The position numbers were made by a program, and so were the translations under genes. 64,000 nucleotides of DNA from the NCBI RefSeq assembly GCF_053078305.1, contig NZ_CP166879.1; one strand, written 5' to 3'. Below the pieces are notes generated by a model, which saw only the letters and a list, made by a program, of their open reading frames with translations, ran no database searches and was not told where the DNA came from. Positions 63,521 to 63,855 of this stretch are shown piece after piece; the stretch's first letter is position 1, and each line of letters begins with the position of its first letter.

Positions 63521-63740
63521 GCAGAATATTTTGCTGAAAAATGACGTTGGCCAACGCGGACGGATAACACGAAATCCTGCGAACTGGCAAAACCTAAGTG
63601 AATAAAAGTAAAAACCCCGTTTGTTGGCAGCAAGCGGGGTTTTGTGTTTCTGACCTTGGATAAGGCAAGGGAGAAATTATGGGTAGGGAGGTGCTTCCCC
63701 TGTGAGGAAGTATAAAAGATTCTTTCTGAGGTTGTCCATT

Positions 63741-63854
63741 ATGAAAGGCATTGAAGTGGAGACGCCAGCCAGTCTGGATTTAACAAGAGCGGCAGCTTTT
63801 GCCATTCGTATTGTGGCCATTGCTGTTCTGGTCTGGGCAATCCGTTGGTGGTGA
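63741..63854 (+). CDS. tiny hydrophobic ORF (37 aa) between endolysin and Rz
   Basis: ATG 63741 (MKGIEVETPASLDLTRAAAFAIRIVAIAVLVWAIRWW); stop overlaps the Rz start region. Not in the ORF track. Confidence 0.25.
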   Translation: MKGIEVETPASLDLTRAAAFAIRIVAIAVLVWAIRWW

Positions 63855-63855
63855 T

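Follow-up and report, generated by a model that had tools for sequence, protein, structure and literature searches.

The 335-bp interval between the endolysin gene R and the spanin gene Rz, located at positions 63521-63855 of the window (the whole stretch of 64,000 nucleotides from contig NZ_CP166879.1 that was analysed here), is, on balance, probably an inserted, mosaic, moron-like cassette of the late operon that encodes a membrane protein, and not a spacer. The interval belongs to the lysis region of a lambdoid, Shiga toxin (Stx)-phage-like prophage, which forms the end of the window. The proposed cassette would be built of three parts, namely an intrinsic-terminator hairpin placed directly 3' of the preceding gene, a leader of ~60 nt whose Shine-Dalgarno (SD) sequence is predicted to be held in a small conserved stem-loop, and a gene for a putative single-pass inner-membrane protein of the PHROG 4493/1115/3246 family. 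The extent assigned to the gap in an earlier note on this DNA is correct, R ending with a TAA codon at 63518-63520 and Rz beginning with an ATG at 63856; the coordinates of all features are collected in Table 1.

Judged by its substitution pattern, the open reading frame (ORF) of 37 codons found in the interval really codes for a protein, on which strong purifying selection acts. A total of 134 copies of the ORF were collected from two viral-contig scans and from the contigs reached through exact protein matches, and 130 of them (97%) are intact. Between the allele of the window and the commonest diverged allele (type II), 23 of 111 sites differ, with ~19 synonymous and 4 nonsynonymous changes (ratio of nonsynonymous to synonymous rates, dN/dS, ~0.03; binomial P=1.1e-8), and all four nonsynonymous changes are exchanges among I, L and V. 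Read in either of the other frames, the alleles have a dN similar to or greater than dS, and the coding signal is gone. Since the ORF is coding and under purifying selection, the gap is not conserved as noncoding DNA, which is the outcome that the earlier note had set against its own proposal. The product, MKGIEVETPASLDLTRAAAFAIRIVAIAVLVWAIRWW, does contain the single transmembrane-like segment that had been noticed, its best 19-residue stretch (residues 16-34) reaching a Kyte-Doolittle hydropathy of 2.10. The stop codon does not overlap the start of Rz, as had been supposed: the TGA occupies 63852-63854 and is separated by one base (63855) from the ATG, in the arrangement TGATATG. The last codons of the ORF, TGG TGG TGA, make the SD-like sequence GGTGGTGA for Rz.

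At the protein level, the ORF was compared both in its 37-aa form and in a possible 50-aa form that would begin at an upstream in-frame GTG. The long form matches PHROG 4493 over profile positions 1-54 of 56 (E=1.4e-24) and the short form over positions 14-54 (E=5.5e-16); matches to PHROGs 1115 and 3246 were found as well, all three families being of unknown function. In RefSeq genomes the ORF is annotated at the same coordinates as a 'hypothetical protein' (WP_000675931.1). Sequence searches of Pfam, NCBIfam, PADLOC and PDB with the ORF, the long form and the other small ORF modules described below gave no match, and no PADLOC defence model was hit at E up to 1 by the ORF or by the other modules. 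The AlphaFold model of the 50-aa form places a confident helix (predicted local distance difference test ~90) at residues 25-49, joined by a linker to an N-terminal helix of low confidence. The charge bias of the two forms is opposite, the short one having a net charge of -2 in the N-terminal flank and +1 in the C-terminal flank, and the long one a net charge of +3 in the N-terminal flank. An amphipathic N-terminal helix was considered and discarded, the hydrophobic moment of RKYKRFFLRLSI not being above that of shuffled sequences.

The hairpin with a T-rich tail that precedes the ORF, also pointed out in the earlier note, is real: its stem has 15 pairs, two of them G-U, closed by a 3-nt loop and followed by TTTTGTGTTT. 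A GC-rich stem-loop directly followed by a U-tract (tail UUUUGUGUUU), as expected of an intrinsic terminator, is thus present, and the hairpin is the top terminator-like site of a scan that found 7 sites versus 1.1 expected from shuffles. As + strand RNA it folds at -21.1 kcal/mol (z -3.2, with 1 of 200 shuffles equally good), and on the - strand at -14.3 kcal/mol, the G-U pairs being present in the + strand RNA only; an A-tract 5' of the stem makes the element terminator-like on the - strand too. When seven divergent cassettes are aligned, pairing in the helix amounts to 92.7% and five pairs show compensatory changes, a result matched by 0 of 500 shuffles, and the pairing drops to ~60% when the partner columns of the alignment are slid. 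A GC hairpin lies 55-120 nt upstream of the small ORF in every context checked, and a - strand U-tract accompanies it in all contexts. A permissive Rfam scan of 62000-64000 returned only sub-threshold chance matches, such as the rimP leader (25.6 bits versus a gathering score of 47), and no known RNA family in the gap; an Esr41-like match at 62061-62135 (- strand), just downstream of the esterase gene, scores 19 bits versus 102 and is probably due to chance. A second terminator-like hairpin, of 12 pairs followed by TTTATTGTTG, is located at 62700-62728 (+ strand) between a DUF826-like ORF ending at 62690 and the holin gene, so that, together with the hairpin at 63611-63643, the holin-endolysin pair would be bracketed by two terminators.

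The gap had been described as unusual, which is not borne out: 2059 of 5426 complete E. coli genomes and 209 phage records contain matches to parts of it, and the ORF is already annotated in RefSeq. The median is 2 copies per E. coli genome, 673 genomes carry the gap at nearly full length, and the phage records are mostly those of Stx-converting phages. The statement that R and Rz normally abut holds for a closely related cassette, that of the Qin prophage of K-12, where rrrQ, 85% identical to R of the window, overlaps the start of rzpQ. Since so similar an endolysin gene overlaps there an Rz-like gene, the gap is an insertion relative to Qin, which is devoid of such a cassette. The first ~155 nt of the gap, including the hairpin, are widely shared, and the remainder is mosaic. 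Within the spacer that leads from the R stop to the hairpin, the first ~30 nt reappear after a lipoprotein gene in type II loci and the last ~20 nt (AGTGAATAAAAGTAAA) before the hairpin in type III loci, a pattern that we interpret as that of junction or remnant sequence. In 116 viral loci with this hairpin, Rz follows it at discrete distances, in classes of 198-207, 244-245 (the window type), 347-408, 551 and 1333 bp, and these intervals accommodate between one and four ORFs for small membrane proteins (PHROGs 4493/1115, 4906 and 6632). In the 1333-bp class a DNA methyltransferase is present in addition. This methyltransferase-like gene, of 311 aa, lies between the small ORFs and Rz and ends with ...GGTGGTGATATG in a different frame; since it shares this junction, the motif belongs to the translation-initiation region of Rz as well as to the sequence coding for RWW. 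Chimeric proteins, in which N- and C-termini from different modules are combined, are also found in the databases.

The same 37-aa ORF is found in other genomic contexts, and the framing of the earlier note, which had treated it as part of a lambdoid lysis cassette, is too narrow. In type II loci it follows an endolysin of the M15-peptidase kind, accompanied by different holins, and is joined by TGAnATG not to Rz but to the gene of a 60-aa lipoprotein (PHROG 7528). In these loci (L126-L131, ~2616-2798) the holins are Phage_holin_8 and holin_3_7, and the lipoprotein, of unknown function, is predicted to be an outer-membrane one with the lipobox LLVGC; no Rz/Rz1 is included in the genes called over the next ~2.5 kb, and these cassettes may thus have no spanin or a non-canonical one. 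In type III loci the ORF follows a GH108 endolysin gene and the genes of the heat-labile enterotoxin type II (LT-II). The A and B genes of this toxin lie between the GH108 endolysin and the small-ORF cassette (L132-L135, ~787-1925), the junction doubling as a cargo site for the toxin. In the same loci the downstream lipoprotein gene is disrupted and the 37-aa ORF is intact, an observation by which a role of the ORF as partner of the type II lipoprotein was discarded.

A profile search of 1.84 billion proteins retrieved 37 relatives. The divergent ones, of 50-62 aa, have an N-terminal basic motif xYxKxFRLRxSM, an acidic linker (G-[LI]-E-x-x-[AT]-P throughout the PHROG 4493/1115/3246 family), a transmembrane helix and a C-terminal [IV][RK]WW, and the same motifs are retained at 34-57% protein identity. 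Their genes are located after a major-capsid gene (L234, L236 and L237), after a tail-fibre gene (L238) or inside a baseplate module (L239-L241), so that the family is not specific to lysis cassettes; these non-lysis contexts rest on eight metagenomic loci (L234-L241). A tblastn search of GenBank phages with a divergent member retrieved E. coli phages only. In L234, three 48-nt hairpin units are found, each ahead of small ORFs, one of which encodes a protein 44% identical to an E. coli protein named here module C. This array, located after the major-capsid gene of a metagenomic phage (2923-3903), interleaves the three units with five small membrane-protein ORFs, two of which are relatives of the window ORF; window-like and module C kinds thus co-occur in two unrelated genomic contexts. 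From these comparisons of sequence and context, the mobile unit is taken to be the hairpin plus the leader plus the small membrane-protein gene, and arrays of such units occur.

In the leader, the inner stem CCTTG-N7-CAAGG (63654-63670) buries, in the predicted fold, the SD sequence AAGGGAG (63667-63673), and is kept with unrelated loops in 5 of 7 aligned leaders (the window, GER2, L236, L235 and unit 2 of L234); the outer stem is only 70% paired. A stable structure of the whole 127-nt leader was ruled out (z ~0), the conserved part being the small SD-occluding stem only. An upstream ORF of 8 codons lies 3' of this strong SD, and its stop overlaps the GTG at 63702 from which the long form would start; one variant has ATGA in place of GTGA at this overlap. 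In relatives such as module A (MEKYKR...) the same SD and ATG directly start the full-length protein and, relative to them, the upstream ORF of the window lineage originated from a frameshift that separated the ATG from the rest of the frame. Fusion of the upstream ORF with the long form by programmed frameshifting was considered and rejected, neither a slippery heptamer nor a prfB-like site being found in the right register. The 50-aa form, which has the basic N-terminal segment RKYKRFFLRLSI, is possibly made by re-initiation at the GTGA overlap. As for the near-invariant block of 41 nt that comprises the ATG of the ORF, it shows one base difference (C/T) when alleles with 21% divergence in their ORF bodies are compared, and the chance of at most one synonymous change is 0.0097; it may represent a translation-initiation region. 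The block also contains a promoter-like motif on the - strand, TGGACA-N18-TATACT, running from 63738 down to 63709 and agreeing with the consensus at 10 of 12 positions.

Lambda-type Q antitermination allows RNA polymerase to pass intrinsic terminators across the late operon, and stop-start junctions of the TGAnATG and GTGA kinds favour translational coupling. On these grounds, the cassette would be expressed together with the late operon by Q-modified RNA polymerase reading through the hairpin; in the uninduced lysogen the hairpin would instead halt stray transcription that enters from the holin and endolysin genes. A consensus scan detected no + strand promoter scoring at least 9/12 in 62600-64000 and none scoring at least 8/12 between hairpin and ORF in 10 family members, so that transcription probably takes place only with the late operon. 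Translation is probably held low by the SD-occluding stem and by the 8-codon upstream ORF, and would yield the 37-aa protein from the ATG at 63741 and possibly the 50-aa form too, with translation of Rz coupled to that of the ORF through TGG TGG TGA T ATG. The product might then enter the inner membrane late in infection, where our guess is that it acts as an accessory that modulates the state of the membrane or the timing of lysis, and not as a core lysis factor, because homologous cassettes occupy other late-operon junctions in other phages.

Several points weigh against this picture. Transcription, termination and translation of the cassette are all deduced, a literature search found nothing on this ORF or hairpin and no expression data for the ORF, and the role of the protein is a guess because Pfam, NCBIfam, PHROGs, PADLOC and PDB give no function for it. 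The hairpin also resembles a terminator of the - strand, and its + strand U-tract is poor in some relatives (type III, L234 and L237). Moreover, the consensus scan can miss weak or non-sigma-70 promoters, which leaves room for expression in the lysogen. As to the start codon, divergent relatives clearly include the basic N-terminus in the protein; in type III loci, on a reading of the sequence, no canonical in-frame start is present upstream of the ATG, and for this reason the 37-aa protein would be the product common to all E. coli types. Finally, coding, translation initiation or the - strand promoter-like motif explain the 41-nt block only partly.

The main alternative is a classical moron expressed in the lysogen from a weak promoter of its own, conferring a benefit on host or prophage, for example superinfection exclusion, of which HK97 gp15 is an example, and having no role in lysis. 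In its favour, the cassette is placed between neighbours that adjoin in related phages, it is found again at several late-operon junctions, as is typical of morons, and it is kept intact in very many prophages, many of them probably cryptic; a TATAAA element can moreover be read on the + strand at 63711-63716. We nevertheless regard it as unlikely, as the ten family members scanned show no + strand promoter of at least 8/12, the terminator precedes the gene, whereas described morons have it downstream, translation of the gene is linked to that of the following late gene, and no PADLOC defence model matches. Lower still in probability, and in our opinion doubtful, is a type I toxin-antitoxin-like module, in which a membrane-toxin peptide would be paired with an antisense RNA of ~100 nt transcribed from the - strand site and ending at the hairpin; being complementary to the SD and to the upstream ORF, this RNA would block translation as Sok does for mok/hok. 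The small hydrophobic peptide typical of such systems is found (37-50 aa, one hydrophobic helix), and further features agree with the arrangement: the 10/12 score of the promoter-like site, over which the 41-nt block is nearly devoid of synonymous change, a similar motif that 9 of 11 family members carry at an unchanged distance from the ORF, the U-tract present on the - strand in all contexts and sometimes poor on the + strand, the upstream ORF with a strong SD that overlaps the start of the long form in a manner reminiscent of mok/hok, and the folding of the candidate antisense stretch (z -3.25, mostly owing to the terminator). However, when synonymous codons were randomised with the peptide kept, an equal or better - strand promoter arose in 17% of trials with the window sequence and in 26% with either module A or L238, so that the motif appears to be largely a by-product of the peptide KYKR...LSIM; the remaining 2 family members lack it, and 1.1 promoter-like sites are expected by chance in the region. 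In addition, the G-U pairs form in the + strand RNA only, leaving the - strand hairpin the weaker one, no Rfam family is matched, no + strand promoter that could serve a separate toxin mRNA was detected, and the gene is tightly coupled to Rz or to the lipoprotein gene within an operon.

It is also conceivable in principle that the protein is a dedicated partner of the lysis proteins, that is, an antiholin for the S21-type pinholin, a regulator of release of the signal-arrest-release (SAR) endolysin, or a chaperone or regulator of Rz/Rz1. Its placement, in thousands of E. coli prophages, between the endolysin and spanin genes, the coupling to Rz, the opposite predicted charge bias of the short and long forms, which resembles that of dual-start holin/antiholin pairs, and the precedents of P2 lysA and BSPM4 ORF52 would fit. 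What makes such a dedicated role very unlikely is that the same ORF occurs with endolysins that lack a SAR domain (M15 peptidase and GH108), with other holin families and without Rz, that relatives are located in modules for capsid, tail fibre or baseplate, away from any lysis genes, and that no homology to holin or antiholin families exists. For the ORF, no holin family is returned by Pfam or PHROGs, and only three residues (RWW) follow the transmembrane segment, in place of the charged hydrophilic C-terminal domain of holins. An i-spanin, which would have an N-terminal transmembrane segment and a periplasmic coiled coil of ~100 aa, was rejected, the transmembrane segment being C-terminal, with 3 residues after it and virtually no periplasmic domain; the lipobox that an o- or u-spanin would carry is absent from the ORF. 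At the opposite extreme, the interval might be a noncoding deletion scar containing an open frame by chance, with the hairpin merely serving as terminator of the endolysin gene. The first 90 nt do resemble patchwork junction sequence, and in the window the ancestral long form has its start out of frame, yet the low and frame-specific dN/dS (P=1.1e-8), the 97% of intact copies and the retention of the same motifs in distant relatives leave this explanation with almost no credence. A more ambitious proposal extends the moron-like reading: the cassettes would form an undescribed class of portable phage elements that recombine at the hairpin/leader and build tandem late-operon arrays, with two isoforms of opposite topology (a short, acidic one with N-out and a long, basic one with N-in) working as effector and inhibitor of a permeabilisation timer comparable to holin/antiholin, and with an antisense RNA ending at the bidirectional terminator that, in some lineages, would silence them in lysogens. 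As a whole we hold this proposal to be a long shot.

The moron-like reading can also be considered in the light of known systems. The moron concept derives from HK97 and HK022 (Juhala, Hendrix and colleagues), and lambda bor, lambda lom and HK97 gp15 are examples. With lambdoid morons the cassette shares the presence of an extra gene unit between late-operon genes that are adjacent in a related phage, as seen in K-12 Qin, the association with an intrinsic terminator, the mosaic and portable character, and the fact that some morons encode small membrane proteins. It differs in that morons have their own sigma-70 promoter, which was not found here by a scan that can miss weak promoters, and in that their terminator is downstream, whereas here the hairpin is upstream and the ORF runs into Rz via TGATATG. 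PHROGs 4493, 1115 and 3246 are the direct match, but they are bare database families, for which neither a function nor a context or cassette structure has been described. Dual-start holin/antiholin pairs, such as S105/S107 of lambda and S68/S71 of phage 21, likewise provide a small membrane protein in a lysis cassette with two possible in-frame starts, the longer product adding positive N-terminal charge, which should change the topology. Unlike them, the ORF shows no homology to holins, its putative dual start would add 13 residues instead of 2-3, it has one transmembrane segment and no hydrophilic charged C-terminal tail, and its family is also found outside lysis cassettes. Phage P2 lysA encodes a membrane protein between the endolysin gene K and the spanin genes lysB/lysC, and affects lysis timing; LysA is much larger than the present ORF product and has several transmembrane segments. 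The position between endolysin and spanin is the same. In Salmonella phage BSPM4, the small protein ORF52 tunes holin function (PMC11657625). Both LysA and ORF52 are membrane-active accessories that tune the timing of lysis and are dispensable for lysis, and neither is homologous to the ORF. With hok/mok/sok, lastly, the locus shares a small hydrophobic peptide, an upstream ORF overlapping its start and a possible antisense transcript directed to a bidirectional terminator; it differs in that its antisense promoter draws no support from codon randomisation, no separate toxin promoter was found, the ORF is embedded in an operon and no Rfam family matches.

Table 1. Features of the R-Rz interval and of the neighbouring lysis genes (window coordinates).
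Feature	Position	Strand	Evidence or remarks
Holin, phage-21-type class II (pinholin type)	62767-62982	+	Pfam PF04971 'Bacteriophage P21 holin S', E=7e-33; PHROG holin families
Endolysin R, phage lysozyme, 177 aa	62987-63520	+	Pfam PF00959, E=2e-25
Noncoding patchwork spacer, R stop to hairpin	63521-63610	+	89-96% conserved with the hairpin in ~200 phage records
Intrinsic-terminator-like hairpin and U-tract	63611-63650 (stem 63611-63643)	+	Terminator scan, RNA folding, covariation
Leader stem-loop TTTCT..CCTTG-GATAAGG-CAAGG..AGAAA	63647-63676	+	Minimum-free-energy and centroid folds
Upstream ORF of 8 codons, MGREVLPL*	63679-63705	+	Read from sequence; ATG 63679, TGA 63703-63705
Possible long form, 50 aa, GTG start	63702-63854	+	Open frame; PHROG 4493 match
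Near-invariant block of 41 nt	63708-63748	+	Contains GAGG, ATG 63741 and the - strand promoter-like motif
Small membrane-protein gene, RefSeq WP_000675931.1	63741-63854	+	ATG start, 37 aa, substitution pattern
Rz (i-spanin), 5' part, truncated by the window end	63856-64000	+	PHROG 13 'Rz-like spanin', E=1e-16

The genes at the end of the window are arranged in the order sialate-esterase-type gene, two small ORFs, holin, endolysin, gap and 5' part of Rz. The holin gene begins with two Met codons close together (MYQM...), and the endolysin has a weakly hydrophobic, SAR-domain-like N-terminal segment (LSAAVLALICAGASA). The R endolysins of Stx phages have been described as SAR endolysins of the R21 kind, and the pairing of pinholin and SAR endolysin was found by a survey in nearly all Stx phages (PMC8136144). 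The full-length homologues of Rz in L001, L002 and L004 are annotated as lysis protein or Rz.

Other RNAs were recognized along the window. Immediately 5' of the sialate-esterase-type ORF (60034-62055, 673 aa), a full-length match to the small RNA (sRNA) STnc100 is present at 59719-59930 (+ strand; 167.6 bits versus a gathering score of 47). STnc100 has been related to the prophage sRNA PasD in a 2026 preprint, which reports the gene order pasD, esterase, holin and lysozyme, and the sRNAs PasA and PasC have been reported in the interval from esterase to holin; the Pas sRNAs are thus outside the R-Rz gap. The antitoxin RNA sok is matched at 54776-54947 (+ strand; 97.6 bits versus 59), which points to a hok/sok type I locus in or near the same prophage. 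Three matches to naRNA4, derived from repetitive extragenic palindromic elements, are above the gathering score (17546-17616, 40587-40663 and 40701-40777), one of the loci being matched also on the opposite strand.

Taken as a moron-like unit, the ORF becomes a better-described example of the small membrane-protein genes of this kind, from an uncharacterised PHROG family. In the lysis regions of E. coli prophages, Stx phages included, few uncharacterised genes are as common as this one, and the very strong purifying selection acting on it implies that it does something. Standard annotation treats such cassettes as a spacer plus a 'hypothetical protein', while the joint movement of hairpin, leader and small gene across modules points to a reusable small-protein cassette. 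The value of the finding is practical, in that it provides a well-defined and easily testable candidate, with no new principle shown. In Stx phages the release of the toxin is governed by the timing of lysis and, if the ORF tunes this timing or the integrity of the membrane, toxin release and phage yield would both be affected.

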